DNA of 64,000 nucleotides from Amphiscolops sp. MND2022 (Eukaryota). The notes beneath the pieces are model-generated. The model was not told where the DNA came from. It searched no databases and worked only from the letters and a program-made list of their open reading frames with translations. Below are positions 2,573-44,665 of the stretch, piece by piece (positions within the stretch are counted from its first letter, which is position 1; every line of letters begins with the position of its first letter). Where the stretch lies: NCBI GenBank assembly GCA_964187785.1, contig OZ076409.1:65660001-65724000 (forward strand). The letters run 5' to 3'. The position numbers and the translations under genes are program-made.

Positions 2573-4351
2573 TGTCGCAGGCTGCCGCCTGTGATGGCAA
2601 CAACTATACGACCTCGGGATACGGACAAGAAATTACCCCAGGTACATTACCCATTTATTAAACTCAAAACTGCAATTGCCAAGACTCGCTTTAACTATTT
2701 TAGTTTATTTATCCAAACTGAATATTAGTCTGTTAAGTACAATTTGGAATTGTCCAAATTGGGATGTTTTATGTTGCAAATGTGTTGAATACAATTACAG
2801 CAGAGCAATGTAATATAAAGCAACTGTAAGGCAGTATAGGAAACGTGTTCAAGTGATGCTAAGCGCTGATCCAAAAGCGTCACTTGAGCGCATTGTCTTA
2901 TCCAATCAGAGCGCTGTATTTGTTGTGCTATATTAGCTTTGTTGCTATCATGGCCTAATTAGGCCTATTTCCTAAATAACGCTTGCTGTACTGTATTACT
3001 TGGTCAAACGGCCGGTTCCGGCCATTTTGTACAAATAGTTAATTGACGTTGCTTTGATAGTAATAACCGGACCTATTATTTCAAATTCACTTTAGTCCAC
3101 TTGTTGATGCTATAATTATACTCCCCCTCTGCCTAAATGTGAGAAATGAGCATAATAATAATTGCAGTTGGAATGAAGCCTCTCCCCACCTTTTCCCAGT
3201 GCAAGACTGAAACCCCGGACATGGCCAGTTTCGGCCTCGTGAAAATAACTTGCACCAATTTCACTGCTGCGTTTGTTGATCATGATTTATTCAATTTGAT
3301 ACGTGAATTAGACGGCACATGGCAAGCCGCGTGGCAGCACGTGCTGTCTCAACACCTTGTAATAAGGAATGCAATGAACAGTGCATTGTTAACATTTTTG
3401 TTATTTGTATTGATGTTAAGTACGTTAGTTATTTGTTTGATGTTAACTCACGGTCGATGTAAGTTGGGCACGCCGCCTGTCACACCTATAACCACGTGAT
3501 GTTTGGAATAACATTTGACCTTACTAGGACGAATTCCTGAAAGTCTTTGAGGTGCTAACTATCTAACTGTATGTCGGTCCTCATGACCATTAAGGAATTT
3601 GTCGATTACAAATGGAATTTGATCACACTTGTAAGGGTATATATAGCAATGTTTCCTTGAGGTGATTATTAATTCCATACCGATTGTTCAGATCAGTTGA
3701 TTTGTTTCGCATTTATAGATTGCAAGACTAGATTACCAAATAAAATATTCAACCTTGAAATCTTGATGCCTACTACAAGGAAACAAAAGAAAGCTAGAAA
3801 GTCTAGAGGAATTGAGATGCTTTCTGACTTGGAGAACCTTGACATAATGCTAGGGGAAAACCACTTCAATAGAAATGAAAGGGACGGAAGTGTTAGTAGC
3901 AATTTCGGCAGAAGGCCTGGTAGTACCTCTGCAGATGAACTAGGAAATAATGGTGAAAACAGGCACTCAGCCACAAGGGACATTGATCCTGGTAATAATG
4001 CCGATTATGGTCGAAACTCAATTGGTGGCAACTCTAGTGCTGAGATTAACAAGTTGTCAAGTGAATTGAACTCTAGATTATCAAGAGAGTTAGATGATAT
4101 GATGTGTAGTGTCAATTCTCAGATCCAAAGGGCAATTAGTGATGCAATAAGCAACCAAGTACTCCCACAAATCCAATCCGCCCTTAGTGCCGGGTCAGGA
4201 CACATGACACAAAACAGATGGGACATTCCGTCCGAGAGACCGGAAATAAATTCCGAAGGACTGCAAAATACTAACCCCAAAGACAGTTCAACTAGCAAGC
4301 ATAACCATGACCATCAGAATGATGGTGGTATTAATTTAAATGCTTACGACA
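2573..4351 (+). repeat. 5' LTR of element A
   Basis: Direct repeat of 16917-18695, no differences seen by eye. TG...CA ends with a 5-bp inverted repeat. TATA-like TATATATA 3638-3645 and AATAAA 3739-3744. Confidence 0.96.
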
Positions 4352-5478
4352 TGGTGACAGGAGACAACGAATCTCCGAATCAAGTTCCTGAGTTTCTCAC
4401 AGGACGGATTCTATCGCGGAATCATCTTGACCAGTCCTATGAAGACATCAACCTTAACACGACGATCCCAGCACAAGAAAGACCCGCTCCGGTTGCCGAA
4501 TCTGATCCAATTACTAGACTGGCAGATGTCTTGACAAACATGCAGAATCGACCAACAGCCCAACAACTCACCATACGCCCGGTCAACTCAAATACCATGA
4601 CCTTTGACGGCAAAAGTGAGAAATTTGAACTGTTCGAAGATCTGTTTCATACTATGATCAAGATGCAGCCAGAAATGACTGAACAAATGAAGATTAACCA
4701 TTTCCACTCGCTTTTGAGGAAGAATGCTCTTCAGACGTTCAGAAATATCAACTCGACCAACCGACAGACTCTTGAAGACGTTTTGGTCATTTTCCGACGA
4801 AAATACGTCAAACCCGAGTCACAAGCGACTGCCAAGCACAAATGGCACCGCTTGGTCTTTGATCCCAACACGATGAAATTACCGGATTTCCTTGAAGAAT
4901 TGAATCAAGGGGCAGAAAAAGCATTCGGCGATCATGCACAAAAAATGATTGACAGCCTATTGTACGCAAAACTGCCTCCGAAACTCAAGCGATCAGTCAA
5001 CATGGCCAGATTAGAAAATGGCTCTTACGACGAAATAGTTGCTCATTTGGAGAGGGAACTAGAGCTTAACGCCCTTGAGGAGTCAGATGACCTACCCATG
5101 GCAACAATGACCTCCTCATCCTCCAAGACTAAAACCCCTCTGTCCACTAATCAAATGTCAGATATAACTTGCAACTACTGCAAGGAAAAGGGCCACATGG
5201 TCAAAGACTGTGAAAAACTCAAAAAGAAGAAAGAAAAAGATGCCCAACAAGGCAAATCGACGGAGAAGAAAACGTACCCTAAATGCGGGACTTGTGGCAA
5301 GAAAAATCATCCAGAGGAGCGATGTTGGCAGGGAGCAGGTGCTCACTTGAAACCCAAACGAACCAGACCTGAAGATTCTTCAGACACCGACAATGACTCC
5401 AAGGCACCCAAACCACACAACAAACCAACGTCCTCCAATACCCAATCCTCATCAAACAAAGATGAGTCAAAAAACTAA
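3766..5478 (+). CDS. gag: Gag of element A (570 aa; starts inside the LTR)
   Basis: MPTTRKQKKARK start homologous to element B MPSTRRQKAKARK; capsid-like core (FDGKSEKFELFEDLF); two CCHC knuckles CNYCKEKGHMVKDC and CGTCGKKNHPEERC. Confidence 0.93.
   Translation: MPTTRKQKKARKSRGIEMLSDLENLDIMLGENHFNRNERDGSVSSNFGRRPGSTSADELGNNGENRHSATRDIDPGNNADYGRNSIGGNSSAEINKLSSELNSRLSRELDDMMCSVNSQIQRAISDAISNQVLPQIQSALSAGSGHMTQNRWDIPSERPEINSEGLQNTNPKDSSTSKHNHDHQNDGGINLNAYDMVTGDNESPNQVPEFLTGRILSRNHLDQSYEDINLNTTIPAQERPAPVAESDPITRLADVLTNMQNRPTAQQLTIRPVNSNTMTFDGKSEKFELFEDLFHTMIKMQPEMTEQMKINHFHSLLRKNALQTFRNINSTNRQTLEDVLVIFRRKYVKPESQATAKHKWHRLVFDPNTMKLPDFLEELNQGAEKAFGDHAQKMIDSLLYAKLPPKLKRSVNMARLENGSYDEIVAHLERELELNALEESDDLPMATMTSSSSKTKTPLSTNQMSDITCNYCKEKGHMVKDCEKLKKKKEKDAQQGKSTEKKTYPKCGTCGKKNHPEERCWQGAGAHLKPKRTRPEDSSDTDNDSKAPKPHNKPTSSNTQSSSNKDESKN
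4352..4363 (+). other. Primer binding site of element A
   Basis: TGGTGACAGGAG immediately after the LTR CA; the identical 12-mer follows the 5' LTR in B and C. Confidence 0.9.
5469..5475 (+). promoter_or_regulatory. -1 ribosomal frameshift slippery site A AAA AAC (element A)
   Basis: Heptamer directly before the gag TAA. The -1 frame is open into pol (LTSPRLQ...) and homologous to B and C. Confidence 0.88.
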
Positions 5479-8400
5479 CTTCGCCACGACTCCAATACAA
5501 CCAACTAATATCCGTCCGTCAATACATCAGGTCGGATCCTCCGACGAAAACTTTCCATGAATACCAACATCAATTGATGGGTTACCCCTCTGTTGTCTGG
5601 CAGCAACAGATGGAAAAAGCTACCATTATCACCTATAATAATACCCATTTGCTCCAAAAACCAATTCCTGTATGGGACCCTGATTACACATCTGCTTTCA
5701 CTAGCCGATTCAGGCCCATTCCCTTGGTAGACGACTACAACCCTACCTACATAGATCCTGACTACGGACGAGATCCCTATTGGGATACCGAACTTTACAA
5801 CCAGGATTTGTTGCAATTCCAATACGTTATCGATGACATAGAACTCTATAACAGATCAGTCCACGACAATCCACCAATCACCCATAACAAGAAAACCAGA
5901 GCATTGATTGAAACATGGCAGATGAATGATGGTACAAGACATCCGGTGTTCCCAAACCCCTTGGGGACCGAAACCTCAGACAAACCAGAAGAAACAATAC
6001 CACAGTCACTACTTGATGAAAGTCAGTTCCAGAACATCCTCATCACTAGAGAAGGAGAACCAGACTGTATTCCTCTGTCCACCAGCATAAACTTGAAATG
6101 CAAAAAACGCATGCTGTATTTCCCTATGGACTTTGGGGAACTGACCATAGATGGACTTATTGACACTGGTGCTTTATCCAGTGCAATCCCTGAAATGGAC
6201 CTCCGGAAAATCAGGCTCCTATCGCCGCAATCAGTCATCCGGGAGGGTCCACCTCCGAATTTCCAGATAATGGTCGCAAATGGGCAACTAGAAACTCCAA
6301 AGAGTACGATAGAGCTCAAATTTGAAGTTGGTGACATAGAGTTCCATGAAATTTTCATAGTAATGGAACACTTGACAGGACCGATTATAGGACTCATGTT
6401 CCTACAGAGAAACCATACAGTTCTGGACATGAGGCAAGGAATACTGAACTTTCCATTCTTTTCGATGCAGCTCAAAACAGCTGATCACAAATACTCGAAT
6501 GTACTCGAACCAATTTTGAATCCTACCGAAATAACCATTCCGTCAAATGACAGAGTCCTAATTAGGACCAATTCCCTATTGTACCCTGAAAACACGGTCA
6601 CAGGGATTTTACAACCGAGCGACCTTCTCCATGAAGAAGGCGACATCACATTCTGTCCAGCCTTGGTCAGTTTGAATGATGGCAATATACAGATACAGGT
6701 AAACAATTTCACAGACCACCCTTACAAGCTCAAAAAGGGACTCCATATTGCCAGTTTCTCAGTCATGACGCCAGAACAGATGAAATACGTTAAACCGGTA
6801 GACCCAGCTTCAACCTGGCATTTGCTACAAAATGACCAAGAGCAGGCAGCCCATTACGTCAGTAGTCTCATCAAGACTAACAAGAATCCACAAAATACCG
6901 AAAACTACTGGTTCCCAACCCCAGAGAACCCAGGGAATCCGGAAGAACATACACCAATCCAAAAAAGGATACTCCGTGAATTACTAGCCCTACAGGAACT
7001 AGAATCACTTGATCCCACAAAGGACGAGGAATCTAGAACAAAATTCCTGGAAAACTTTGACTGGAAAGACTCCACATTGACACCTGATGAAAAAGAGAAA
7101 ATCGAACGATTACTAGTGGAGTTCCATGATATTTTTGCGAGACATAGATTCGACATAGGCATGAATGAGGAATTCAAAGTGAAGCTGACACCCAAAGATG
7201 ATTCCCCAGCCTATAGTCAGAGCCTCCCTGCACCGATAAACTTAAAGGAGGACATATTAGTTGAATTAGCCATGCTCCACAAATATGGCATAATAACTAC
7301 CTTACCGTTCTCGAAATACGCCAGCCCAATATTCGCACAAAAGAAGCCGAATGGGAAACTGAGACTTCTGGTTGACTTGAGAAAAATCAACAACCTAATC
7401 TCTGATGATTATATTAACAATAATCATCCAGTCAGTACCCTAGTCGATGCCGCCCAACACATGGCAGGCAAGAAACTCTTTTGCAAGTTAGACTGTTCAC
7501 AAGCGTATCATTGCCTTCCGATGGCTGACCAACGTTCAATCGAAATGTTGGCCTTTAACTTTGCAAGCCGCACATTTGCATATAGACGACTGGCACAAGG
7601 CCTTAATAGAGCACTGTCCGCATTCTCCAGCTTTATGAGAGAGTACCTTGACAAAGTCATAAAAGCGGACCAATGTGCACAGTATGTAGACGATATTGGC
7701 ATCGCAGCCAACGACGCCGATCACCTCATTGCTAACCTGAGAGCAACTTTCAAATGCATCCAGGAAGCAGGCCTTAAATTGACGATGCACAAGTGCCATT
7801 TTGGTGCCACAGAAATCGATTTCCTTGGCAGGACAATAACCGCACAAGGCGTCAAGCCCCAACGGCAGAATGTTCAGAATTTCCTAGAAAAAACCAAATT
7901 TCCGAAGTCGAAAAAGGCTCTACAGAGATATTTGGGTTTCTTGAACTACTACCGGAATTATGTCCCAAGACTGTCTGAACGCCTTGCTCCGTTCTACAAG
8001 ATGCTGAAGAGTGACGAAAAAGTCCTAGTGTCCAAAGAACTGGTTCAACAATTTGAGGAAATCAATCGAGCTCTGGACAAATGCTGCGACTTGGCCCTAC
8101 AACAACCCATCCCGAACAAGCAAATTGCCCTAATGACAGATGCAAGCTTTGGTGCTGCAGGATATGCAGTACTAATTGAAGATGACCCGAGTCAGAAATT
8201 CACGTCAATCCGCAAATCATATGCACCGGTCGCTTATGGTTCAAAAACCTTCACCCCAGCCCAGATAAAAATGTCGATTTATGCAAAGGAATTCCTCGCG
8301 ATTTATTTCGCATTCAAAGAATTTGGGCATATTTTCTGGGGAGCGCCGAAACCGGTCATAATCCTAACTGACAACAAAGCCGTAACGAGATTTTTCCAGA

Positions 8401-10682
8401 CGAAAATCGTACCCCCAGCCCTGTGGAATGCATGCGACTATGTAATTCAATTCAATTTTGTCATCGCGCACATCCCAGGAGCGCAAAATACGGCAGCGGA
8501 TTATTTATCCCGATTGGAAGCCGATCCGAAAGACAAATTAGTCATGAAAATCCGCGAAGATGTACAAACACTGCCAATAGAAATAAACGTCCAATCAGCC
8601 GGAGTCTCACAGGAAGAGCAAATCTTCTACACAAATGACGACGATGAGACTGAAGAACAATATTGGGCGAGGAAAGAAGCAATCAGGAAAAACCCTGTAA
8701 CTGAAGAACCTACTGTCACAATACAAACTCTATCTACTAACTTAGTCAAACAACAACCTGAAATACAGGTCCGATTGAGGAAAACGAACCAGATAATTAT
8801 TGAGCAATCCAAAGATACAGTACTGCAACAACTGAAAGCGAAGCTCCTTCATGAAGAGTACTCAGAAAACATACTGCAACAAGATGCTCGATACAGGCAT
8901 TACGCTAATAATCTGGAAAGAATTGTCATCAAGGAAGACATACTAACAAGGCAATATTTTGATGAAACTGGGAATATAAAATACCATCAAATTCTTCTCC
9001 CGCAACACTTGCTGCCAGAATTGCTTCAGTCCCTACACGGGACAGCCCACAAGCACCCAGGCATTTCAAAGATGCTGCAGGAGATCAGACAGAGATACTA
9101 TTATCCCAACATGGCGAAACATGTCAAAAAGTGGGTACAAGGGTGTGAACAATGTGCAAAGGACAAACGAGTCCCAAATGCAACAATCACGCCCGAACTA
9201 CTTAACTTGCCGGAATGGGACCTTGGACCCGAAGACGCCATGCAAATCGACTTATTGCCGAATCTTCCCCCAAGTGGAGGATACGAAAATGTTTTGACTG
9301 CAATTGATGTCTTCTCTCGATACTTGTTTGCTTATCCTCTTACGGACGCATCAGCGATCAATGTAGCTAAAGCAATCATTGATATTATGACCAAACATTC
9401 TTACCTACCGACGACGCTCATTACGGACAAGGGAACTGCCTTTACCTCCACGATCATTGCGGAAATTACACAGATTTTAGGCATTACCCTAAAATGTGCA
9501 ACGACCAAACACCCGCAAACTATCGGGAAGTTAGAGCGAACACATGCCTCATTGAAAACGAATTTGAAAATGGCATGTGGAGAATATCGCCGACAATGGC
9601 ATAAGTATTTGCCTTTAGCAGTTCTCAATCATAACACTAGTTATCATGCCAGTATCGGATGCGAACCGACAAGAGTGTTCCATGGGAGAATCCCATATAA
9701 CATCTTGGATCACAAACTTGGAATGAACCCAAATGAGCAAATCCATCCGACTACTGAATTCGCAGAAGAAATCCAGAACCGAACCAAACTCCTTATTGAC
9801 AAGACAAAGCAGAACATCATGCAGTCATATATCAAATATAAGGAGTATTACGACAGGAAAGCCAAAGCCGCCCCACTCAAAGAGGGCGATTACTGTTTTG
9901 TATTACAACCGAAAGCGGATCATCAAGGATCAAAAATTCCATTTAGGGATTATCGTTGGGTTGGACCGTTCATAGTCCAGAAGATTTTACCTAATGAGAA
10001 CTACATCATCCGCAGGCTTAATACAAATAAAACGCAGATTTTGCATCGAATTCGTCTCAAAAAGTTTATTCCGAATCAGCCACTTGAGGACAATTTCCGA
10101 GAACAGCGCCTACAGCCGGACGACGAAATAATCATTCCGCAAGACGACTTGTATGTAATAACGTGGGAAACAAACTTTGGTGAGCAACTAGCTACACGAG
10201 GCAACGAGCCGATTCCGGCTAGCCTGACGAATGGCGAGAGGCCGACTACGCCAGAAACGAATGTGAATGATGCAAACGAGAATGAAAGTGATTATGTAAT
10301 CACGACTGATTATCCGAATGACGTCAACGACGCTGTGCGCAGTAGAACCGAAAGAATGAGAAATGACGTCAGCAATGCTAATGAACCTAGTGAAGCAAAT
10401 GAGAATGAAAACTCTGATTGGCCGAATCCGGCCGTTTCCACAACGGATCAAGAAAAACCTGTGCCGAATACGGTTGAAAGACTAAAAGACGATGCGAATT
10501 TTCCAGAAAAGAATTTGATGAATGAAAACGATGCACAAAATTCTCCGAAAAAGGGGGATGATATTATCGTGCCCGAAATATCGCAAAATGATGCTAGAAA
10601 AGAGAGCTTGAGCCCCAGAGGAGGGAAATATAATCTCAGGCCTAATCCTAACCCAAACTACTCAGAAGACTTCAGATACTAG
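5475..10682 (+). CDS. pol: Pol of element A (protease, pseudo-dUTPase-like segment, RT, RNase H, integrase)
   Basis: LIDTGA protease motif; LRLLVDLRKIN and QYVDD RT motifs; LMTDAS RNase H; HHCC (H..H..CEQC), QIDLL/ITDKG/LERTH DDE and WVGPF integrase motifs; uninterrupted frame. Confidence 0.97.
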   Translation, partial: LTSPRLQYNQLISVRQYIRSDPPTKTFHEYQHQLMGYPSVVWQQQMEKATIITYNNTHLLQKPIPVWDPDYTSAFTSRFRPIPLVDDYNPTYIDPDYGRDPYWDTELYNQDLLQFQYVIDDIELYNRSVHDNPPITHNKKTRALIETWQMNDGTRHPVFPNPLGTETSDKPEETIPQSLLDESQFQNILITREGEPDCIPLSTSINLKCKKRMLYFPMDFGELTIDGLIDTGALSSAIPEMDLRKIRLLSPQSVIREGPPPNFQIMVANGQLETPKSTIELKFEVGDIEFHEIFIVMEHLTGPIIGLMFLQRNHTVLDMRQGILNFPFFSMQLKTADHKYSNVLEPILNPTEITIPSNDRVLIRTNSLLYPENTVTGILQPSDLLHEEGDITFCPALVSLNDGNIQIQVNNFTDHPYKLKKGLHIASFSVMTPEQMKYVKPVDPASTWHLLQNDQEQAAHYVSSLIKTNKNPQNTENYWFPTPENPGNPEEHTPIQKRILRELLALQELESLDPTKDEESRTKFLENFDWKDSTLTPDEKEKIERLLVEFHDIFARHRFDIGMNEEFKVKLTPKDDSPAYSQSLPAPINLKEDILVELAMLHKYGIITTLPFSKYASPIFAQKKPNGKLRLLVDLRKINNLISDDYINNNHPVSTLVDAAQHMAGKKLFCKLDCSQAYHCLPMADQRSIEMLAFNFASRTFAYRRLAQGLNRALSAFSSFMREYLDKVIKADQCAQYVDDIGIAANDADHLIANLRATFKCIQEAGLKLTMHKCHFGATEIDFLGRTITAQGVKPQRQNVQNFLEKTKFPKSKKALQRYLGFLNYYRNYVPRLSERLAPFYKMLKSDEKVLVSKELVQQFEEINRALDKCCDLALQQPIPNKQIALMTDASFGAAGYAVLIEDDPSQKFTSIRKSYAPVAYGSKTFTPAQIKMSIYAKEFLAIYFAFKEFGHIFWGAPKPVIILTDNKAVTRFFQTKIVPPALWNACDYVIQFNFVIAHIPGAQNTAADYLSRLEADPKDKLVMKIREDVQTLPIEINVQSAGVSQEEQIFYTNDDDETEEQYWARKEAIRKNPVTEEPTVTIQTLSTNLVKQQPEIQVRLRKTNQIIIEQSKDTVLQQLKAKLLHEEYSENILQQDARYRHYANNLERIVIKEDILTRQYFDETGNIKYHQILLPQHLLPELLQSLHGTAHKHPGISKMLQEIRQRYYYPNMAKHVKKWVQGCEQCAKDKRVPNATITPELLNLPEWDLGPEDAMQIDLLPNLPPSGGYENVLTAIDVFSRYLFAYPLTDASAINVAKAIIDIMTKHSYLPTTLITDKGTAFTSTIIAEITQILGITLKCATTKHPQTIGKLERTHASLKTNLKMACGEYRRQWHKYLPLAVLNHNTSYHASIGCEPTRVFHGRIPYNILDHKLGMNPNEQIHPTTEFAEEIQNRTKLLIDKTKQNIMQSYIKYKEYYDRKAKAAPLKEGDYCFVLQPKADHQGSKIPFRDYRWVGPFIVQKILPNENYIIRRLNTNKTQILHRIRLKKFIPNQPLEDNFREQRLQPDDEIIIPQDDLYVITWETNFGEQLATRGNEPIPASLTNGERPTTPETNVNDANENESDYVITTDYPNDVNDAVRSRTERMRNDVSNANEPSEANENENSDWPNPAVSTTDQEKPVPNTVERLKDDANFPEKNLMNENDAQNSPKKGDDIIVPEISQNDARKESLSPRGGKYNLRPNPNPNYSEDFRY

Positions 10683-10934
10683 GAAAAGAGTAAATTGCGT
10701 CCAAAAGAACGCTTAGCTCATTTTCTTTTTCCTTTCATTTCTTTTTTTCTGGCCCCGGAAGCTGAATTTTCAGAATAAACAACAAGGCATTAAAGCAATG
10801 ATCCCGCACAAGTGAATAAATATGGGATCATGAAACAAAGAAATGATAGCAGAATACAAATGTGACAACAAAATGAGAAATAAAGAAATCAACAGAGTTT
10901 ACAGTTTGATGTACATAAATACATATGTACAGAA

Positions 10935-13900
10935 TCAGGATTTAGTAGAAGAATCCTTACTAGGACTACCAACGACAGAGGATGACGATGATCGGGAAAC
11001 ACTCCTTCCCTTCTTCCGCTTCTTGCTACTGGGGATCCTTACTGCGGACTGATCTTCAACGGTACTACTCTCTGCCAAATTGACCTGCGTTGAAACCCTC
11101 TTCGGAGCTGAGTCGGCTTTGCGGTGAGTGGACAGGAGAGACTTATAGATTCTTGACCGACCGAAAGTGTCAGTATAAACCCAAGGATCGTACTCTGAGG
11201 AAAAGGCAGCACGTCCAAAGGACTCAGCTAGAGCAGAGAACTTGGCCAAGTGGGAGTCTTCACTGCTCCGTAAAACCGATCCGGCAACATTGGCCATGTA
11301 ACTCTGGCAAGGCAAGACCAGGTCCGTAAATCTGCTTTGCCCTCCTGCAGTGGTGACCTCTCCAAAGGTGACATCTGGGTAACTTGGGCTGACGGTGGTT
11401 GAACACAAACAACTCAATTTGAAGAGATATAACAAGTGTGGACGCTCATGAAGAAAATCAAGCCCCATCAGGAATTGAATCAAATCGGGTTCCACGCTAG
11501 TGATATCAAAGCTGGAACCGAAGGCAGTCTGGAGATGGTCCAGCAACTGAATATACTGGTCCCGACACTGAGACTCATTTGAATCTTCAACCCAAGATCG
11601 AAGTACAAAGGTGTTGTAGAGTACCTCGAAGTGCCGCAAAGCTACATCCGTGGGTCGCTTCAGCATTATATAAGGATCAAAGGCCGCCAATCCTTTTATG
11701 AGGTTGGTGCTGAAAGCTGTCTTCTCGAGTACTCCATTAATCAAAAACTGGATGTACTGCTGGCTGTCCTTGACGAAATCAGCTTTTACCTTATCGGCAG
11801 TGGCCAGGATGGCAGGACGTTCAGTTTTCTGGCCGAAATGGATTCCATCAGCCTTGACTCTGCTTGCCGTTGCCACTCGATTGCTCATCTTGAGACGAAT
11901 CAGGTATTCGTCTCCGGGGAGGAAAGTACCCTCACTGGTCTGGAACCGGAGGAGGAGAAACCAAGCGTTGGCAATTGGGGCAGTGTCCGGAGTATAGATT
12001 CGGGAGCAAAGCAGGCTGAGGAAGCGGCTAACTTCTCCGCATAGATAGAAGGAAGCATCCCGGCGGTATTGCAGATTCACTGTGAAGCTGGAAACGACTA
12101 AAAACAAAACTGATGTCCAACTCAAGACAGTTTTCTCTCACGAAAATTGTACAGGACTACACTCACAGTCATTGACGATCTTGCTGAAGAACTCCAGCTT
12201 AACGGTGAAGAATTCGTCACATATCAGTGACCACTCGAAACTTTGTGCCTGGAACAAACATATGGCCAATTGACGATTGGAAAACGGACCTTTAGTTTGT
12301 TTGACGGATAAGGACAACCCAAACCCTTAGGGGCTTAAGTGCAGATAAGGAAATCTAACCCTTCCTCTGGAGCCAGATCCTTCTTGCAGTGGTGCGTGAT
12401 TAGTGAGGTAGCGCACCACAGACTTCCACTCGGCAATGAGCTCTCGGCAAAGAATGGGCAGGGTTGGTACTTCTAGCTTGCAACTGGTTATGGCCTGAAA
12501 TACCAATTAAACCTGCGTTAGCATGATAGGGATATCTAAACGTCCTGACCCAGTTCCCGTTCCCTAGATGAAGATTCTATAAGAAAACTACTCACCTTGG
12601 TGAGCTCAGGACTTCTGATGACCCAGTCTTCCATGAGAGAACCGCCCAGAGAGACCATCAGAGCTTGCAGGACAGAGAAAAAATCTATTTTCCCAAAGAC
12701 GCTGTAGCTGGTTTTATGCATGAGGCAAGCTAGGGAGAAATGTTCAAATCGAGGACAGCTCTGAACCCCTTGGTTGTAATATCCAGACTCATCAATGGTT
12801 CTGGGTAGATCTGGATGACATCCCGAACAGGCGACTATTCCGGGCTTTGTGGACACAGCGGAGAGGAGGCGAGAAAGAGATCCCAGTTCGCCGGTAACAT
12901 CTGTAGTGAATCGGGAGCTACGACAGACGAACACCCTACAGAGTTCAGACCCCTTCCAGAACTTGATGGACATGTGTTTGAAAATTCCTACTGTTTCAAA
13001 TTCGAGGGAGAAGCACTGTTGGGAGTTGACTTGCTCCGCGATTTCATCAAGACAACAGATGAAGAAATGTTGGAAAATCGCCTAAAGACAGAAAGCACCT
13101 TTTGGACTAAATAGGGAAGAGGAAGACTTAGGAGAGACTGTCAATGAGTGAAGCGAAAAGTACTTACCGACAATCTTTCTTCACCCCAATCAAAATCGTT
13201 GAAACTGCTTTGATGGTTGGTGAACGATCCAATTCGGGACCACAGGTTGCGCAAGACCATCATATCGCCTTGGGTCCTGATGTAATCCCCAACCAGGCAG
13301 AGCTGAGTTTTGAGGCGAGCTTCAGGGGTGGCCATGGTAGTGGTGGAGCCTTTGACGAAGTCGTCATAAAAAGGAAAGCGCTCACCAATGTCCACTAATT
13401 CAACATTCCTGAATTTAGGCAGCTCTCTAGCTAACTCCACCTTGGTCAGGAGTTTCCCGTTCCCACCTCGGACTCGGAGTTGCGTCTTCCCTGTGACTGG
13501 ATCGACACTGCGGAGGTGTTCGTATCGCCAACGCTGGTCTCGCCGCAGATGACGTGCAGTCCGATGGTGCCTGAGGATTTCGTATGGCCCCTTTGACTTT
13601 ATGGAAAAATTCTTTTTACAAATGTGGCACCAGACCATGAGTGGATTATGAAGAGGATCTGCTGGGCCAGAAATGAAGGATCTCGTCCATCCAATTTTGC
13701 TAAAGAATTCCTCCCGCATAGGGACCCCACGTCTGGAGAGGGCCTTGCTTCCTTTCTTCTTTTTAGTCCCGGAGGATCCAGCGCTGGGTGCGGCTAGAGC
13801 TTGGTTCCTAACCTCAAGCAACGTATCATCTTGGCTACTGGACTCTGGGGCATCAATCTCAACATCCTGTGATATGTCTTGACTGGGAGTTTGCGGTTCA

Positions 13901-15159
13901 GGAGCGCCTTGACCTTGTGTGACCTTCTTGAAGGACTTGGTTATAAGATCCATTTCCGTTGCGCTGTCAGTCTCCCCATAATAGGAGGACTCTCCTGTCA
14001 TTTCAGTCTCAGTTGATCCAACATCTCTGTCCCCCAGAGTGGCTTCCCTTTCGGTGTCACTTCCGCTGGAACCTCCCATGGCTGCAGGTCCAGGAGTCTG
14101 AGCTCGTCTACCCGAGTAGAAATGTGCAGTCCTGGATGGAGCAATGGCTGGCCTGCCTCGAACCGCATCAATAACCATTTTTTCCATGGTTGAGAAGGAC
14201 CGTCCTAGAGTCTCATCGGTAAGGACTCTCAACAAGTGATATACTTGCGGCTCTGTGAAGGTGACGGTGGATTGGCCTACGGGGAACCTCGAGGATGGCG
14301 ACTCATCGAAATACTCCTTGAGAATTGCCCGACTCCTTCCTGAGAGGTGTGGTGGTTCTTTCTGAGTTGCGCCTTGCCCGGACGACGGCCCACTGGTACC
14401 TGGAACGTGAGGGTCAGGCCCAGTTTCGTCCCCTCCATCTGTTCCAGAGGCGTGAGAGAAAGGATGACTTCCATATAAAGCTACTGGAGCTATCACGCTG
14501 GACTGGTCGGTTGCCCCCTCATCTCCGCTGGGCTCTGTGAGGTATCGAACTCTTACTTCCCCACCGGGGAGGGGTGGAGCGTCTCCTACCGAGGAAGCTG
14601 CTTCCGTGTCCTGCTGCAGGGTTGGGCTATCTCCAGTGGTGTTGGCTGAAAGATCAATATCCACAAGTTCAACTAATTGGGATCCGGGTGTCCCGACTAC
14701 TCGAAAGGCTGACTCTAGAGCAGAAAGGTCAGCACTTGGGGTCTCCCCCACATTATCAGAAAGTGGGGTGCTCGCTCTTCTAGGCTCAGTGATGGGCGTA
14801 ATGACAGGATCCTTTGGGGTATCAAGATTGACTTCTGAGAATTGGCCTCTTTGCTCTGTCTTCTCTTGCGGAAGGCTTGATGTTTGCGCTCCCTCCAACT
14901 GACGTACCATATTGTCTGCATATGTAGTAACATCTGGGTCACTATCGGCGTTATGGGAAGAAGTGGCTTCGTCAATTCGTTGGCCGTGTGATTCTTGGGA
15001 CGTAGCTGGATGCTGGACTTGCTCAGTCTGTTCAGACAAGGGGTTGCTTGTCGAAACGCTGTCAGAGGGGTTAGCTGGTGTATTCACAACTTCAGTTGTT
15101 TGGTTCTCTAAACGAAAAGAGATAAAATTTGGCGGTATGCTTCCTCGAAAAGAATCCAT
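10935..15159 (-). CDS. Antisense spliced gene of element A: C2H2 zinc-finger, hAT-transposase-like protein (~1285 aa)
   Basis: Exons 15159-13168, 13081-12596, 12494-12360, 12248-12167, 12097-10935, joined by GT-AG introns (86, 101, 111, 69 nt), give 3858 nt in one frame, homologous along its length to the B and C genes. Possible alternative first exon 15323-15308 spliced to 15107. Product identity is inference. Confidence 0.85.
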
Positions 15160-15329
15160 ATTACCGCGTTAGAAATCTTCCGGAAGTATCTTAGACTTGA
15201 ACAAAACGTGTTATCACGTGCCTATTAGTGGAAACAGGAAGCGCTGTACGAACGAAATTTAGCCCTGATCAAGCTAAGCTAGTTCAACATGTGAAAACCA
15301 GACCAACCTGTACTCGAAGACATGCTTCT

Positions 15330-16222
15330 CCAGTATCGTTAGTCCAAAGTAGAAGAATGAGGAACAACGAAGGGACTGTGTGATTGAGCCAATCTCGGCT
15401 GGGGAAGGAAGGAACCAGAGATTCTCTGAGAGGGAGATGCCACTCGTGATGAGAGGAAAGGACGTCGTAATAGCAAAGTGTAACGAATATGCAAATGTGT
15501 TGAATTTGAATGGAGACAAATGGAAGTTAGATGGAATTGAAAATGTAACAATCAGATAGGATCGGAGAGTTGGAGTTCGTGGCTGAAGATTTACCAGACT
15601 AATATTATTCGATTATCTACATATTTAAAACTGTACACGGAGTCTGCCAGCGAAATGTACAGAAAATTCCTCGTTATTTATAACTTCGTTAGTTGAGTGG
15701 CCGATTACGGCCTTTTACCCTACTTACCTTTACCGTTTTGTTCCGTTGCCTTTATTACCCTTAGTTAGAAATCGCCATTTTAGAATAGTCAAAATTATTA
15801 TTTTTCGCCATTTTATTTATTAATTTTTCATTTTATCAACGGGTAATTCTGATTGGCTAACGCCATGTTGAGAAAGAGCTACGACGAGCGCAGTTAATTA
15901 CCTTCAAGCGACCTGTTAATTACCCACTTGAAAATAGTGAAGTTGGTTTTGATGACTCGAGTGTTATTCACACCTCTCCAAGCGGTGTAGTAGATGGGGG
16001 GTAAACATTGGATTATCAAAGGCAGCCAACTAATTATGGAATTCCATTCAAGAACGTTTATGTCGGATTGGGAGATTCGACTGAGGAATTCTACCGCCAC
16101 AACGAATTGCCGGGAAAAGACCGAACTCGGCTAATACCCTAAGTTTGATAAATTCATTCAATCTCATATTTCATCGACAAACAGTTGACTTGCCTAGACT
16201 CAAAATTGCAAAGAAATACATA
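15330..16222. promoter_or_regulatory. Putative internal bidirectional promoter region of element A
   Basis: Non-coding gap between divergent genes. TTGGAGTTCGTGGCT (15570-15584) and GGAGTCTGCCAGCGA (15639-15653) are conserved with element B at identical 54-nt spacing. Reverse CCAAT box (ATTGGCTAA) near 15853. Confidence 0.55.
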
Positions 16223-17005
16223 ATGAGCAAATTTAACCTCTCAAGGAAATTATTTGATCTTGAAGGTTGCGACTCAGATGAATCTACTGATTCAGTAATC
16301 TACATCTCTAGCGACGAAGAAGAGTCCTCATACTGGGAATCGGACTGTTCTACCGACACGGAACAATTAATCGCCCGCATAGAGAAAGAGGTTACGTCGA
16401 GCCCAATGCTGATCGCAGGACGAATTATGACGGTGGACACGACGGAAAATGATATGGTGGCTGGACCAAGCACGTCAAAGACGGACACTGAGATGACACC
16501 TAAACTGGATCACAGGTATTTCGACATAGACAGGTGCTACGCCCCCCCGAAGAAGGCCGGAAAATCAAAAATCGAGATTTGTAGTACGATTTTGCCAGTT
16601 TTGGAGTCGCCCCTATCTCCCCCGGATCACGAAAAGGGCCCAAGCAAAGACACCCCTTTGGTCCAATCAACTAGTGGGAGCTTCCGTGCCTCATATCATA
16701 TTCAGAACTCGAGGCCCTACGACGATATAAGCAGACAACGGTGTACTAGTTGCATGGTCTGCGGGAGAGCAGTAGATGAAATCAAAGAGGAAAAAATCAA
16801 GTGGTATATGGACAGATCGACCCCCAGAGGAGAGCCTGAGTACATCACCAAATTGAGGCGGGAAGCGTACGTGAACGGTCTTAACGCCGGCAGCTTACTT
16901 TTCATTGCACCCGCAGTGTCGCAGGCTGCCGCCTGTGATGGCAACAACTATACGACCTCGGGATACGGACAAGAAATTACCCCAGGTACATTACCCATTT
17001 ATTAA
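16223..17005 (+). CDS. Accessory sense ORF of element A (260 aa; acidic SIM-like N-terminus, CxxCxxC motif), ends inside the 3' LTR
   Basis: Homologous to B 52894-53730 (CTSCMVCG/CTDCLICG, VSQAAACDGN/VSQASACDGN); ATG context aaaattgcaaagaaa...ATG conserved with B. Confidence 0.8.
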   Translation: MSKFNLSRKLFDLEGCDSDESTDSVIYISSDEEESSYWESDCSTDTEQLIARIEKEVTSSPMLIAGRIMTVDTTENDMVAGPSTSKTDTEMTPKLDHRYFDIDRCYAPPKKAGKSKIEICSTILPVLESPLSPPDHEKGPSKDTPLVQSTSGSFRASYHIQNSRPYDDISRQRCTSCMVCGRAVDEIKEEKIKWYMDRSTPRGEPEYITKLRREAYVNGLNAGSLLFIAPAVSQAAACDGNNYTTSGYGQEITPGTLPIY

Positions 17006-18695
17006 ACTCAAAACTGCAATTGCCAAGACTCGCTTTAACTATTTTAGTTTATTTATCCAAACTGAATATTAGTCTGTTAAGTACAATTTGGAATTGTCCA
17101 AATTGGGATGTTTTATGTTGCAAATGTGTTGAATACAATTACAGCAGAGCAATGTAATATAAAGCAACTGTAAGGCAGTATAGGAAACGTGTTCAAGTGA
17201 TGCTAAGCGCTGATCCAAAAGCGTCACTTGAGCGCATTGTCTTATCCAATCAGAGCGCTGTATTTGTTGTGCTATATTAGCTTTGTTGCTATCATGGCCT
17301 AATTAGGCCTATTTCCTAAATAACGCTTGCTGTACTGTATTACTTGGTCAAACGGCCGGTTCCGGCCATTTTGTACAAATAGTTAATTGACGTTGCTTTG
17401 ATAGTAATAACCGGACCTATTATTTCAAATTCACTTTAGTCCACTTGTTGATGCTATAATTATACTCCCCCTCTGCCTAAATGTGAGAAATGAGCATAAT
17501 AATAATTGCAGTTGGAATGAAGCCTCTCCCCACCTTTTCCCAGTGCAAGACTGAAACCCCGGACATGGCCAGTTTCGGCCTCGTGAAAATAACTTGCACC
17601 AATTTCACTGCTGCGTTTGTTGATCATGATTTATTCAATTTGATACGTGAATTAGACGGCACATGGCAAGCCGCGTGGCAGCACGTGCTGTCTCAACACC
17701 TTGTAATAAGGAATGCAATGAACAGTGCATTGTTAACATTTTTGTTATTTGTATTGATGTTAAGTACGTTAGTTATTTGTTTGATGTTAACTCACGGTCG
17801 ATGTAAGTTGGGCACGCCGCCTGTCACACCTATAACCACGTGATGTTTGGAATAACATTTGACCTTACTAGGACGAATTCCTGAAAGTCTTTGAGGTGCT
17901 AACTATCTAACTGTATGTCGGTCCTCATGACCATTAAGGAATTTGTCGATTACAAATGGAATTTGATCACACTTGTAAGGGTATATATAGCAATGTTTCC
18001 TTGAGGTGATTATTAATTCCATACCGATTGTTCAGATCAGTTGATTTGTTTCGCATTTATAGATTGCAAGACTAGATTACCAAATAAAATATTCAACCTT
18101 GAAATCTTGATGCCTACTACAAGGAAACAAAAGAAAGCTAGAAAGTCTAGAGGAATTGAGATGCTTTCTGACTTGGAGAACCTTGACATAATGCTAGGGG
18201 AAAACCACTTCAATAGAAATGAAAGGGACGGAAGTGTTAGTAGCAATTTCGGCAGAAGGCCTGGTAGTACCTCTGCAGATGAACTAGGAAATAATGGTGA
18301 AAACAGGCACTCAGCCACAAGGGACATTGATCCTGGTAATAATGCCGATTATGGTCGAAACTCAATTGGTGGCAACTCTAGTGCTGAGATTAACAAGTTG
18401 TCAAGTGAATTGAACTCTAGATTATCAAGAGAGTTAGATGATATGATGTGTAGTGTCAATTCTCAGATCCAAAGGGCAATTAGTGATGCAATAAGCAACC
18501 AAGTACTCCCACAAATCCAATCCGCCCTTAGTGCCGGGTCAGGACACATGACACAAAACAGATGGGACATTCCGTCCGAGAGACCGGAAATAAATTCCGA
18601 AGGACTGCAAAATACTAACCCCAAAGACAGTTCAACTAGCAAGCATAACCATGACCATCAGAATGATGGTGGTATTAATTTAAATGCTTACGACA
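16917..18695 (+). repeat. 3' LTR of element A (contains truncated gag copy 18110-18730)
   Basis: Direct repeat of 2573-4351 followed by TSD GCTAC. Confidence 0.96.
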
Positions 18696-20292: not shown

Positions 20293-21720
20293 TGTCCCAG
20301 GCGTCCGCCTGTGATGGCAACTTGTATTCTATTTGCCACAACTACCAAAAAGCTCTACCCAACACGATCCATTTAAATTGAAACTTTTTAAATGAACTGC
20401 ATTTGTATCTCAAAAGTCATGTAATTTATTTATTCTGAATATAAAATATCATGTAGTGATGATTTAATATTATGTAATACCGGCGCTAATTTGTACGTTG
20501 CTAGTAGATTGGACACCAAGGCGTACAGGTAGAGGAAACGCGTTCAAATGTTTTCTCGCCTGTCGCCTTGGTCTACCGGTCCAATTAACTCGCTAGCCAA
20601 TCACAGTGCAGTACTTTCTTTATTCGGTGCTGTATTATGCTGCTAGATTAAAGGGACTGAGCGGCCATATGCCGCCAGTCAACAATATCTCGGTCCACTC
20701 ATGTCGATTGGACGCTGAGGCCGTTTTTGGAATTAAAGGCGCTTGCTGGAAAGTGCTATGAATTACATAATAACCGGTGCTTTACTGTCTTATTTAGTGA
20801 ATTATCAGTCCTTAGAGGACATGTAATCTGTGCTTAATAGTGCGCCATCAATGCCTTTGATATATTTCATGCAATTAGAAAATGTTGAAATACATGTAGT
20901 TTATTGCGTTCATACATGTATGTCGTTGCTTGTCCGCATGGACCTTCAGTCTTCCCGCCACAATAACTGTCGGGAATTATTATTAGAAAATGATGATCAA
21001 TATTATGCGTGTCATGTAGTTTGTTATATATATATAGCGGAGACATTTAGTCCCGGGACACAAGAAGTTTGACCTTACTACATGCTTGTTACTTGATACT
21101 GAGTAATCTCACACTGAATTTGCAAGCCTGAGAACTTAATTTAAATTCTTACCTCTTGCAATAATCTCTTATGCCTTCTACTAGACGACAAAAAGCGAAA
21201 GCTAGGAAATCTAGGGAAATGGACATGATGTCCGACTTTGAAAACTTAGATGTGATGCTGGGAAATAACAATAATAATCCCATAGAAAGAGAATTAGCTG
21301 AAGCTATAGATCAGTCGTCGGCCCATGGGGACGCTGATACACACACGTACCTAGAAAATGAATATAGAGATTATCAGCATGAAAATGATGTACTGAGACA
21401 AAATGAAATCAAGCACTCCTTTGAAACATTCTCGAATGAGTTTAATCTCAGATTGTCTCAAGAAATGGATTCTATGATGTCAATGATGCATAATCAAATA
21501 AATAGAGCTGTCACAACAGCTATAAATGAAAGAGTCATTCCAGAGATCCAAAACATTGCTAGTTCCATGTCCTCTGCTGGGCACAGGGACACTGAGGCCA
21601 GTTCGTCCCCGAATAGCCAGGAAAACAGGGAAAGCGTATCTGGGCCTAAAATAAAAATTGCAAAGAAGGATTCACGATCTGTAGGAGATCTAAGAGAGAC
21701 CCTAGGTCAGAGTTCTCACA
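20293..21720 (+). repeat. 5' LTR of element B (1428 bp; lacks 80 bp present in the 3' LTR)
   Basis: Direct repeat of 53642-55149; TG...CA ends; TATA-like (TA)n near 21025. Confidence 0.95.
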
Positions 21721-22859
21721 TGGTGACAGGAGCTATTGACACCCAACAGCAGATTCCTGAATTCCTGACTGGACGAATCCACTCAATCCCGAACCTCCAG
21801 AGGCAACATTCCAACCACAATGTCTCTCTAGACGCGACTCTGCCAGCCCCAGACCCCGAGGTCCCAGAGCCACAGCAGGACCCGTTCAACAGATTGGCTG
21901 ATGTATTAGTCAATTTGCAAAATAAACCACAAACTATGACCATTAGACCTGTCCAAACAACTCCAATGACGTTTGACGGAAAAAGCGAAAAATTTGAGCT
22001 TTTTGAGGACTTGTTCCACACGATGATCAAAATGCAACCTGCAATGACAGAACAGATGAAAATCAACCATTTCCATTCATTGCTACGAAAAGGGGCATTA
22101 CAGACATTTAGGAACATAAACTCCATCAACCGTCAGACTCTGGAAGACGTACTGGTCATATTCCGGAGAAAGTACGTTAAACCGGAATCCCAAGCGACGG
22201 CAAAACACAAATGGCATCGACTGACGTTCGACCCAAATACCATGAAATTGCCGGACTTCTTGGAAGAACTGAACCAAGGAGCTGAAAAAGCTTTTGGTGA
22301 AAATGCAAAAAGCATGATTGACAGTTTGTTATATGCGAAACTTCCACCAAAATTAAAACGATCTGTCAACATGGCCCGGTTGGAGAACGGGACGTATGAA
22401 GAAATAGTCGCTCATCTTGAAAGAGAGCTAGAACTTAATGCATTAGAAGAGTTCGATGACTTGCCAATGGCCACTATGGCCTCGGCGTCAACAAACCAGA
22501 GCAACTTGCTTTCTACCGGCATCAACACCAACAAAGACGCTCAATGCTCCTATTGCAAGGCAACCGGACATTTTTACAAAAGCTGTCCTAAACTCAAGAA
22601 AAAGAAAGAAATGGAGGAAAAAGATGGCAAAAAACCACAGCGTCCTACTTACCCAACTTGTGACACATGTGGGAAAAAGAACCATTCAACTGAAAAATGT
22701 TGGCAAGGCGCAGGTGCCCACCTGCGTCCCAAGAGGTTACAAGCGGAGCAAAAAGATCCAAATGCCTCAACTTCAGAAAGCAAACCTAAAACACCAGGTG
22801 ACACGACGACCACCAGCTCAAGCCAATCCAATATCAAAAAGACAGATCCAAAAAACTAA
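21171..22859 (+). CDS. gag: Gag of element B (562 aa; starts inside the LTR)
   Basis: Capsid core near-identical to A; CCHC knuckles CSYCKATGHFYKSC and CDTCGKKNHSTEKC; ends at slippery A AAA AAC TAA (22850-22859). Confidence 0.93.
   Translation: MPSTRRQKAKARKSREMDMMSDFENLDVMLGNNNNNPIERELAEAIDQSSAHGDADTHTYLENEYRDYQHENDVLRQNEIKHSFETFSNEFNLRLSQEMDSMMSMMHNQINRAVTTAINERVIPEIQNIASSMSSAGHRDTEASSSPNSQENRESVSGPKIKIAKKDSRSVGDLRETLGQSSHMVTGAIDTQQQIPEFLTGRIHSIPNLQRQHSNHNVSLDATLPAPDPEVPEPQQDPFNRLADVLVNLQNKPQTMTIRPVQTTPMTFDGKSEKFELFEDLFHTMIKMQPAMTEQMKINHFHSLLRKGALQTFRNINSINRQTLEDVLVIFRRKYVKPESQATAKHKWHRLTFDPNTMKLPDFLEELNQGAEKAFGENAKSMIDSLLYAKLPPKLKRSVNMARLENGTYEEIVAHLERELELNALEEFDDLPMATMASASTNQSNLLSTGINTNKDAQCSYCKATGHFYKSCPKLKKKKEMEEKDGKKPQRPTYPTCDTCGKKNHSTEKCWQGAGAHLRPKRLQAEQKDPNASTSESKPKTPGDTTTTSSSQSNIKKTDPKN
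21721..21732 (+). other. Primer binding site of element B
   Basis: TGGTGACAGGAG abutting the LTR end. Confidence 0.9.
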
Positions 22860-25800
22860 TTTTGCCACGACTCCAAATACATGACTATATGTCGGTTCGA
22901 CAGTATGTCATTTCAGACCCTCCAATTATAACATTCCGACACTATATAAAGGATACCACAGGCACCCCATCCGTCGTCTGGCAGCAACAGATGGAGAAAG
23001 CCTGCATCAAAACCTATAAACAAGTACACAACGATCGCCCAGACCGATTTTACGAAACTGACTATACTAAAGACTTTGAGACTCAATTCCGTCCCTTACC
23101 ATTGGTCGAAGACTACCATCCTCAATACATTGACGCTGAGTATGGCAAAGATCCGTATTGGGATGATGAATTATATGACAAACGAAATCTCCAATTCCGG
23201 AACGAAGACTATCCCCCAACAGACGATGAGGACGATCCCCAAATAGATGACACTAAACTCTCTAGGGCCCTCATTGAACTTTGGCAACCAAATTCTGAAG
23301 CAATCTCAAGAGAAATAGGGGAAACTCAAGAGCAAGAAGATCACCAAGACCCCAATAGCCTCCTGGATGAAACAGCCTTCTTGCATATTTTAGTGGAACA
23401 ACAAGGTGAACCATCATACGTTCCTCTTTCCACTAATCTTGGACTTAAAATTAAAAGGCGGATGTTATATTTTCCAATGGACTTTGGAGAACTAACGTTA
23501 GATGGACTCATAGACACTGGGGCCCACTCCAGCGCAATCCCAGAAGCAGACCTCAGGAAAATACGGCTATTAGCGCCTCAATCCATAGTCAAAGAGGGAC
23601 CTGCCCCATCTTTCCAAATCATGGTCGCAAATGGTGACCTAGAGACTCCCAAAAGCACAGTGGAATTGAAATTTGAAGTAGGGGACATTGAGTTCCATGA
23701 GATCTTCATTGTGATGGAAAAACTATCCAGCCCCATAATTGGACTTATGTTCTTACAAAGAAATCACACAGTCCTAGATATGCGCCAAGGCATACTCAAC
23801 TTCCCCTTTTTCTCGATGCAATTGAAAACGGCTGACCACAAATACTCGAACGTCATGGAGCCCATCCTCAATCCTGAGGATGCCACAATTCCACCAAATG
23901 ACCGTACAATCATCTCCATTCAATCCAGAATTTACGCAGAAAATGCTGTCACTGGGATTTTACAGCCCAGTGAACATCTAAATGAAGAAAATGATATAAC
24001 CTTCTGCGCTGCCATAATTACACTCGATGAAGGGACCACGAGGATACACATTAATAATTTTACTGACCAACCCTACAAACTCAAGAAGGGGATGCATATA
24101 GCCAACTTCTCAGTAATGACGCCAGAGCAGATGAAACACGTCAGGCCAATAGACCCAGTGTCCACATGGCACCTCCTCAATGAAAATGAAGAAGATGCTG
24201 TTCAATATATCAGCAGCCTTCTGAAAGCCAACAGGAATAACGACCAATATGAACAATATTGGTTCCCAACTCCTGAGAACCCGGGGGACGAAGCGTCCCA
24301 CACGCCAATACAAAAACGAATACTCAGAGAATTGCGAAATTTGCAAGAGGCAGAAAGCCTCAATCCTCAAGAAAATGAAGAATCTCGGCAAAAATTCCTC
24401 AGTAATTTTGATTGGAAAGACTCAATGCTACAACAGCATGAAATCAAACAAATAGAAGCTCTCTTAGTGGAATTTCATGACATATTTGCACGTCATAGAT
24501 TTGATATTGGGATGAACGAGGAGTTCACGGTCAAATTGACCCCGAAGGACGACTCACCCGCATACAGCCAGAGCTTACCGACTCCAATAAATTTAAAAGA
24601 GGATATCCTAGTTGAGCTGGCATTACTCCACAAATACGGTATTATAACTACTTTACCGTTCTCAAAATATGCCAGTCCTATTTTCGCACAAAAGAAGCCT
24701 AATGGGAAGCTACGATTATTAGTAGACCTCAAGAAGATCAATAATTTGATTTCTGATGATTATATTAATAACAACCACCCAGTTAGTACCTTGACGGACG
24801 CTGCGCAACACATGGCCGGGAAGAAACTTTTTTGCAAACTTGATTGCTCACAGGCGTACCACTGCCTCCAAATGGCAGACCAAAGGTCTATTGAAATGCT
24901 GGCCTTCAATTTCGCCAGCAGAACTTTCGCTTACAGACGATTGGCCCAAGGACTCAGTAGAGCCCTGTCGGCTTTCTCTAGCTTCATGAGGGAATACTTG
25001 GACCGCGTTATCAAGGCAGACCAATGTGCGCAATATGTCGACGACATTGGCATAGCAGCAAATGATGCCGAACATTTGATCAAAAACCTCCGAGCCACAT
25101 TTGAATGCATAAGAGAGGCTGGATTAAAACTCACAATGCACAAATGTCATTTTGGCGCAACAGAAATTGACTTTCTGGGAAGAACAATCACCCCAGAGGG
25201 CGTCAAGCCTCAAAAGGAAAGTATCACAAACTTCCTAGAAAAAACTAAATTTCCGAAATCCAAAAAAGCCTTGCAAAGATATCTCGGTTTCCTCAATTAT
25301 TACAGAAACTACATACCGAGACTATCAGAAAAATTGGTTCCCTTCTTTCAACTACTTAAGAAGGACGAGAAGGTCTTAGTCACATCAGAGCTAATCGAAC
25401 AATTCAACGAAATCAATAGAGACCTGGACCGGTGTAGCCAATTAGCCTTGAGGCAACCACTGCCGAATCGACAGCTAGTCCTGATGACAGATGCCAGTTT
25501 TACGGCAGCAGGATACGCTATACTCACTGAAGACGATCCAAACCAGAAATTCACCTCAGTCAAGAAATCCTATGCACCTATTGCTTATGGTTCGAAAACT
25601 TTTATTCCTTCCCAACTCAAAATGTCGATATATGCGAAAGAATTTCTCGCTATATATTATGCATTTAAAGAATTCGGACATATATTCTGGGGGACACCTA
25701 AACCGGTAATTATCCTTACAGACAACAAATCGGTCACAAGGTTCTTCCAGACCAAGATCATACCGCCGCCATTATGGAATGCCTGTGATTTCGTCATCCA

Positions 25801-27957: not shown

Positions 27958-28192
27958 CCAGAAATTTGAATTACTAGTCCCCTCTTTATTTTGACTATTG
28001 GTCCATGAGGACATTCATTTTTTACTTGGGACTTTCTGACTTACTTTGTTACTCGAAATAATTATGTACAATAAAGAAGACTTAGTGGCGAATAATACAA
28101 AGCCACGCCCAAACAAAACAACAAACAGATGAAATAAATATAAAGCAGTTTACAACAAGTACAGTCTAGAAACAAATGTACTCTTTGTACAT

Positions 28193-28898: not shown

Positions 28899-28899
28899 T

Positions 28900-31009: not shown

Positions 31010-31244
31010 CCAGAAATTTGAATTACTAGTCCCCTCTTTATTTTGACTATTGGTCCATGAGGACATTCATTTTTTACTTGGGACTTTCTGACTTACTTTG
31101 TTACTCGAAATAATTATGTACAATAAAGAAGACTTAGTGGCGAATAATACAAAGCCACGCCCAAACAAAACAACAAACAGATGAAATAAATATAAAGCAG
31201 TTTACAACAAGTACAGTCTAGAAACAAATGTACTCTTTGTACAT

Positions 31245-44519: not shown

Positions 44520-44665
44520 CTGAAAACAATCAGCAGGCTAAACCGAACCGGAGTAGCTACGTAAAATTATCATCTAAACTAAAAAGAACAGCAACAAAGC
44601 CAAAATTATAGTTCCTTCAGAATCATCAAAACATAATAAAAGTCTACAAATCGTCACAACACAAA

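Follow-up and report, generated by a model that had tools for sequence, protein, structure and literature searches.

Elements and antisense genes in the window

The window, that is, the whole 64,000-nucleotide stretch of Amphiscolops sp. MND2022 DNA analyzed here, contains three LTR retrotransposons, A, B, and C (Table 1). Each has direct LTRs with TG..CA ends, a 5-bp target duplication, and a primer-binding site, and each contains gag and pol, with an antisense gene following pol and then a short sense ORF; the order gag, protease, RT, RNase H, and integrase was found in A and C by Pfam scans. The three belong to one Ty3/gypsy family, whose common RT motif has 4,928 exact matches genome-wide (1.07 Gb; reversed control, 0). 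In all three, the gag frame begins within the 5' LTR and runs through the primer-binding site, so each 3' LTR carries a gag fragment. About 300 codons long, the sense ORF occupies the interval from the antisense gene to the 3' LTR and continues into the latter; its A and B versions have a CxxCxxC motif in common, and it gave no Pfam match above the cut-off. Element B contains an internal tandem duplication covering the ends of pol and the antisense gene, and its window copy has a frameshift near the 3' end of the antisense gene, unlike most of its siblings.

Table 1. Retrotransposons, antisense genes, and predicted introns in the window
Feature	Position	Strand	Remarks
Element A, Ty3/gypsy LTR retrotransposon	2573..18695	+	two identical LTRs (2573-4351, 16917-18695); target duplication GCTAC; primer-binding site starts at 4352
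Element B	20293..55149	+	target duplication TATAG; split by C
Element C, nested in B	35860..52284	+	LTRs 35860-38200 and 49944-52284; target duplication ATTAT
gag frames of A, B, C	3673-5478, 21165-22859, 37819-39231
Sense ORFs upstream of 3' LTR	16085-17005, 52858-53730, 49004-50014	+
Tandem duplication in B	25848-31957		3,059 bp
Antisense gene of A	10935..15159	-	five predicted coding exons, 1286 aa; zinc finger and hAT-like region
Antisense gene of B	31307..35234	-	217-nt single exon 32762-32546 crosses empty site 3
Antisense gene of C	44666..48556	-	core introns 1 and 3; sites 2 and 4 empty
A intron 1	13082..13167	-	86 nt, phase 0; carried by A/B, C, and D clades, missing from E
A intron 2	12495..12595	-	101 nt, phase 0; carried by A/B and D clades, missing from C and E clades
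A intron 3	12249..12359	-	111 nt, phase 0, in-frame stop within; lost in B clade, absent in E
A intron 4	12098..12166	-	69 nt, phase 1; C sub-family has lost it, E lacks it
B introns	33401-33317, 32830-32763, 32545-32395	-
C core introns 1 and 3	46879-46709, 46087-45959	-
C upstream introns, three	48429-48318, 47852-47694, 47553-47477	-	hand-predicted

Coordinates of the antisense genes were set with a purpose-written protein-to-DNA spliced aligner in which GT/GC..AG ends were obligatory, and the GT..AG dinucleotides are therefore no independent evidence for introns. Intron 1, which an earlier sequence-only reading had assigned to all three genes, was found where it had been placed; like every A, B, and C intron of that reading, it has GT..AG ends and leaves a stop-free frame once spliced in silico. 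Support independent of the dinucleotides comes from recurring codon positions, from the spread of lengths over mod 3, and from relatives that naturally read through. In blind spliced alignments of the B protein with A DNA and of the A protein with B DNA, all A/B introns were recovered at identical codons, and at site 3, B read through with its length unchanged. Intron lengths range from 63 to 923 nt, while those of the flanking exons hold constant, and they are even over mod 3 (22/22/23 of 67 at site 3). The read-through relatives serve as natural cDNAs, confirming the antisense gene model. The antisense introns are predicted to be spliced as modeled. In the interval separating the antisense and pol stops (10683-10934 in A, 44520-44665 in C), the antisense strand has no AATAAA.

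Purifying selection on the antisense gene is indicated by dN/dS values of 0.02-0.06 in 5 pairs; in the other 7 of the 12 pairs compared, dS was saturated. A CxxC and two histidines are conserved in all four clades of the family (A/B, C, D, and E), with weak zinc-finger Pfam matches; this putative N-terminal finger may be BED-type. In the ESM Atlas, an intact clade E protein lay near hAT-derived FAM200/ZBED5 clusters (score 0.93), with 159 shared features, which is below the 170 typical of family members. Neither a hAT dimerisation nor an RNase H-like domain was found above the Pfam cut-off, and there is no conserved DDE triad, only one acidic column being conserved across clades and none in the putative first strand. 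Structure models (pLDDT 60 and 37.5) gave no Foldseek match at E 0.001 or better, PDB sequence searches returned no family, and a search of 1.84 billion proteins gave 630 matches, none of them named, with 0 hAT matches in 42 scanned among the 150 listed. The product thus labeled hAT-like, by resemblance, looks like a disarmed hAT transposase.

Intron states across the family

The antisense gene of C has 20-23% protein identity to those of A and B (22% to A), and blind cross-alignment of A with C, too distant for the purpose, did not recover all sites; C was therefore bridged via intermediate relatives. These carry an intron at the site of A intron 3 and, 82 nt on, a phase-1 intron, as in A. 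Via these intermediates, intron 3 of C is judged homologous to that of A, a correspondence that the sequence-only reading had stated. Exon lengths between the sites agree with this correspondence across the family: among rows with at most one break, 45 four-intron rows show 486/135/82 nt (8 others deviate), 12 rows without intron 2 show 621/82 nt, and 6 rows without intron 3 show 486/217 nt, where 486 + 135 = 621 and 135 + 82 = 217. Clade D, distant and retrieved via the RT motif, has all four introns in unchanged geometry. Site 1 lies six residues past a conserved tryptophan in A/B, C, and D; it fell into two columns of one multiple alignment and a single column of another.

We scored sites 2-4 in the best matches to each antisense gene, 30 per type. 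Four introns were found in 30/30 A-type copies, intron 3 was absent from 30/30 B-type copies, and introns 2 and 4 were absent from 30/30 C-type copies. The claims that, of the three window genes, introns 2 and 4 occur in A and B only, and that intron 3 is cleanly missing from B, are thus borne out, but the differences are old, fixed sub-family states and not the polymorphism that had been supposed. An intron-1 call was missing in 2 of the 90 copies, one of which (L090) still has the acceptor, while the match to the other (L058) starts within exon 2; no new exact loss was seen among these near-identical copies (0/90). Introns of C-type copies (L061-L090) differ widely in length, from 128 to 204 nt for intron 1 and from 103 to 129 nt for intron 3, although the exons are nearly identical; those of the window copy contain long T runs. 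In most clade D copies, intron 4 has grown to about 370-700 nt with short tandem repeats (e.g., L238:4915-5527), and in L249 and L269 of the same clade, intron 2 is enlarged instead (859 and 923 nt).

For diversity, 144 stretches of 10 kb were fetched by protein and motif searches, a sample that is not random. Once the genes of A, B, and C were added, 146 could be annotated, 134 of which went into the trees; the other 12 were dropped for a partial pol or antisense gene, and no antisense-gene match was found in L239. After correction, the states at sites 1-4 (1, present; 0, absent) in the 134 rows were 1111 in 84, 1011 in 28, 1101 in 9, 0000 in 8, and 1010 in 3, with imprecise deletions in 2. 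This scoring counts 12 shifted or decayed calls in damaged copies as present, of which 3 were verified in DNA, and takes scattered calls elsewhere, each seen in one or two rows, as aligner noise. Several candidates for further losses were rejected at the DNA level: intron 1 has decayed in L131 and L198, and in L216 the donor is damaged with the intron present. Two more were rejected as exact losses: the deletion in L183 removes exon sequence too, and exon 2 is deleted in L264; both are single damaged copies, not sub-family founders. Sequences P0001-P0007 were not counted as independent support, since P0007 matches this genome at 100%. No long, spliced relatives of the last exon of A were found among 5,653 candidates, and a motif search for B-like copies with a site-3 acceptor gave 0 matches; intron-bearing B-side families surfaced through looser searches.

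In clade E, core introns were called in none of the 8 tree rows and none of 30 further loci. Its genes are single frames of up to about 900 codons, and 132/132 scored matches to a query spanning sites 2-4 were single blocks at 53-100% identity. Sites 1 and 4 are 234 codons apart in 6/8 rows and 233 in 2/8, compared with 234 in intron-bearing relatives; no gap occurs within 7 residues of site 1 or site 4, and site 3 is alignable only to within about 2 residues. Upstream of the core, four predicted introns, almost all phase-1 and at matching positions, are kept in 8/8 E rows. C-side genes have three or four predicted upstream introns, unalignable to those of E, whereas A/B and D rows mostly have a long first exon without introns there.

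Losses of introns 3 and 4

The sequence-only reading had proposed mapping intron states on an RT phylogeny. Within clades, this map is unsafe and was rejected as a scaffold: the pol and antisense-gene trees conflict, and pol and the antisense gene have been swapped as modules. The antisense gene lacking intron 4, for instance, occurs on two pol backgrounds (that of C and L111 vs. that of L112), so an RT tree would tally its loss more than once. L095 and L145 are 99.8% identical in pol and 61.9% in the antisense gene, and window A and L194 are 99.2% and 61.8% identical, respectively; L248 and L254 present the opposite case (88.3% and 98.6%).

In the antisense-gene tree (FastTree), intron 3 is absent from one clade of nine rows (support 100), which is nested within B-side families that carry the intron, and the residues flanking site 3 in L207 (NR/PQ) are the same as in the intron-bearing L182. 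The group formed by C, L111, and L112 (support 100) lacks intron 4, which is present in its sister group; compared with seven intron-bearing close relatives, all with zero microhomology, the absence at site 4 in these three is exact to the base. Each exact absence is limited to one branch of the tree. Judged by this nesting, the absences of intron 3 in the B clade and of intron 4 in the C sub-family are losses, wherever the root falls among the main clades.

Possible routes of intron loss

The mechanism by which spliceosomal introns are lost exactly is still argued, and exact losses from host genes are rare and old. That the introns here are antisense to the genomic RNA of the element, as had been stated, was confirmed from orientation; the reverse complement of a GT..AG intron is unspliceable from that RNA, and ordinary retrotransposition would copy the antisense introns intact. 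Exact loss therefore calls for either a template of spliced antisense RNA or a DNA deletion that is exact by luck. We consider it rather likely that spliced RNA of the antisense gene, or a DNA copy of such RNA, was the template. It would have directed the rewriting of one element, which would then probably have founded a new sub-family by retrotransposition. Intron 2 would have been lost before the C/E split and introns 1, 3, and 4 on the stem of E, the tracts being short in B and C, whereas E may reflect a single long 3' tract; candidate enzymes are the element's RT, a LINE RT, and a host repair polymerase.

Recombination with cDNA, the route suggested by the sequence-only reading, survives in part. 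It is favored by the exactness of the absences, by two polarized losses, and by a clade without all four core introns, but B and C have each lost a single intron and yet retain a neighbor 82-135 nt off, from which we infer short tracts or partly spliced RNA, and intron 3 has a 2-nt AG microhomology. Single losses of this kind misfit a long, 3'-anchored cDNA and need a very short tract. The expected 3' bias is seen in E and C and not in B, the events being few, and upstream introns, if lost in A/B and D, would contradict a simple bias. Adjacent introns were not lost jointly in B and C; E lacks a run of them, on a long stem. RNA-templated break repair, gene conversion by cDNA, and, as we infer, a template switch of the element's RT in plus-strand synthesis would all fit. 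Self-editing within the particle seems to us an unlikely form of this: the antisense mRNA, once spliced, would be packaged together with the genomic RNA to which it is complementary, and a brief RT hop onto this mRNA in plus-strand synthesis would give insertions born without one or more introns. If true, it would be a route of intron loss internal to the retroelement, accounting for the very short tracts of B and C as well as for the long tract of E.

Junction microhomology, read from intron-bearing relatives and not from ancestors, was 0 nt in 69/71 clean calls at site 4, which is empty in two separate lineages, and at most 1 nt in 57/73 at site 1; it was at least 2 nt in 42/67 at site 3 and 3 nt in 28/59 at site 2. 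Sites 1 and 4 thus speak against a microhomology route, and sites 2 and 3 fit either. Exact deletion at the DNA level, by microhomology repair or by RT slippage between short repeats of the genomic RNA, with selection retaining the in-frame products, could have removed intron 3, because the 2-nt AG repeat is present in the closest relatives of B (the nearest being L243), and a 3-nt repeat is common at site 2. The events hit single introns, deletions do happen in these elements (L183, L264), selection by itself filters for in-frame ones, and an effect of microhomology is described even at single nucleotides in the account of PMC3698931. This alternative is improbable all the same: site 4, with zero microhomology in 69/71 calls and in 7/7 close relatives of C, has nevertheless been emptied to the base in C and is also empty in E; among 47 in-frame endpoint pairs within 6 nt of the intron ends, 1 is exact (a count, not a rate model); and three further independent near-exact deletions would be needed on the E branch.

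Clade E and the root

Intron 2 is absent throughout C and E, and the reading of E depends on the root. In a FastTree pol tree with outgroups of 27% identity, E was placed inside the family (support 87-88). IQ-TREE on RT-RNase H did not settle the base, and AU tests with these distant outgroups rejected none of four roots (p 0.44 for E-basal and p 0.44 for C+E vs. D+A/B). MAD rooting fell between C+E and D+A/B for pol and at the three-way junction for the antisense gene, and the stem of E scored worse in both (0.196 vs. 0.170 and 0.226 vs. 0.104, respectively). Because MAD disfavors the stem of E while the AU tests keep an E-basal root, the absence of all four core introns from E is likely, and not proven, to reflect loss rather than an ancestral lack. 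As this stem is long, the losses of E need not have been one event.

If E was instead ancestrally intron-free in its core, as the E-basal root permits, introns 1, 3, and 4 would have been gained on the stem shared by the remaining clades, intron 2 would have been gained in A/B and D, and only the B and C events would be losses. The C+E vs. D+A/B root, which is the MAD root for pol, leaves the direction at intron 2 either way. We regard such partial gain as quite unlikely, given that MAD disfavors the stem of E in both trees and that no new core intron position is common to more than 2 of 130 rows checked, so that no ongoing gain is visible, whereas losses are. Of the system for intron loss or gain that had been envisaged, the losses stand, two being polarized by nesting, and no gain was demonstrated. 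That the four introns are artefacts of an aligner imposing GT..AG, in a region not spliced as modeled, is scarcely credible beside introns so variable and even over mod 3 between fixed exons, with natural read-through relatives joining identical codons.

With spliced antisense RNA as the favored template, the family would be a natural test bed for genomic intron loss, as it holds one gene in thousands of copies beside an RT, in an orientation shielding it from ordinary splicing loss. It has intron sites with and without microhomology in one genome, and surveying its young copies could distinguish losses templated by RNA from those driven by microhomology.

Relation to known systems

A literature search, mostly outside subscription journals, yielded no paper on antisense genes of LTR retrotransposons losing introns. 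Giant elements of planarians may likewise carry antisense ORFs. Plant Ty3/gypsy elements carry antisense ORFs between pol and the 3' LTR (Grande gene23, RIRE2, and Retand TRP28; PMC7264820, PMC11963269), and, in those accounts, they share position and orientation with the antisense gene here and are kept across copies. The gene described here is, in contrast, multi-exon and hAT-like; the TRP28 domain (PF04195) was not found in it in Pfam scans, and the word "intron" occurs nowhere in the main text of either article. The hAT-derived FAM200/ZBED5/C17orf113 proteins resemble its product in language-model features (0.91-0.93) and in the succession of a zinc finger, a strand-rich region, and a helical region, whereas the product lacks a Pfam hAT match and conserved catalytic acidic residues and is carried by a retrotransposon.

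Among mechanisms, RNA-templated break repair has been described for whole-intron deletions in human somatic cells, with polymerase zeta, and, as presented in PMC12065846, involves a spliced mRNA template, exact junctions, and single or consecutive introns, with microhomology unnecessary; germ-line action would be required in the present family. Microhomology-mediated loss, in the text of PMC3698931, which argues against RT-mediated intron loss in worms and flies, likewise removes single short introns exactly. Intron 3 fits it weakly, and site 4, empty in two lineages and without junction microhomology, does not. Loss through reverse-transcribed cDNA, which according to a review badly needs experimental corroboration (PMC3488318), matches the exact removal seen here and the state of E, in which a series of neighboring introns is missing on the 3' side and those on the 5' side persist. 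Compared with the losses discussed in that review, those in B and C differ in being isolated and internal, with neighbors 82-135 nt off, and in that the target gene sits within a multi-copy retroelement, so that each loss has been amplified into a sub-family.
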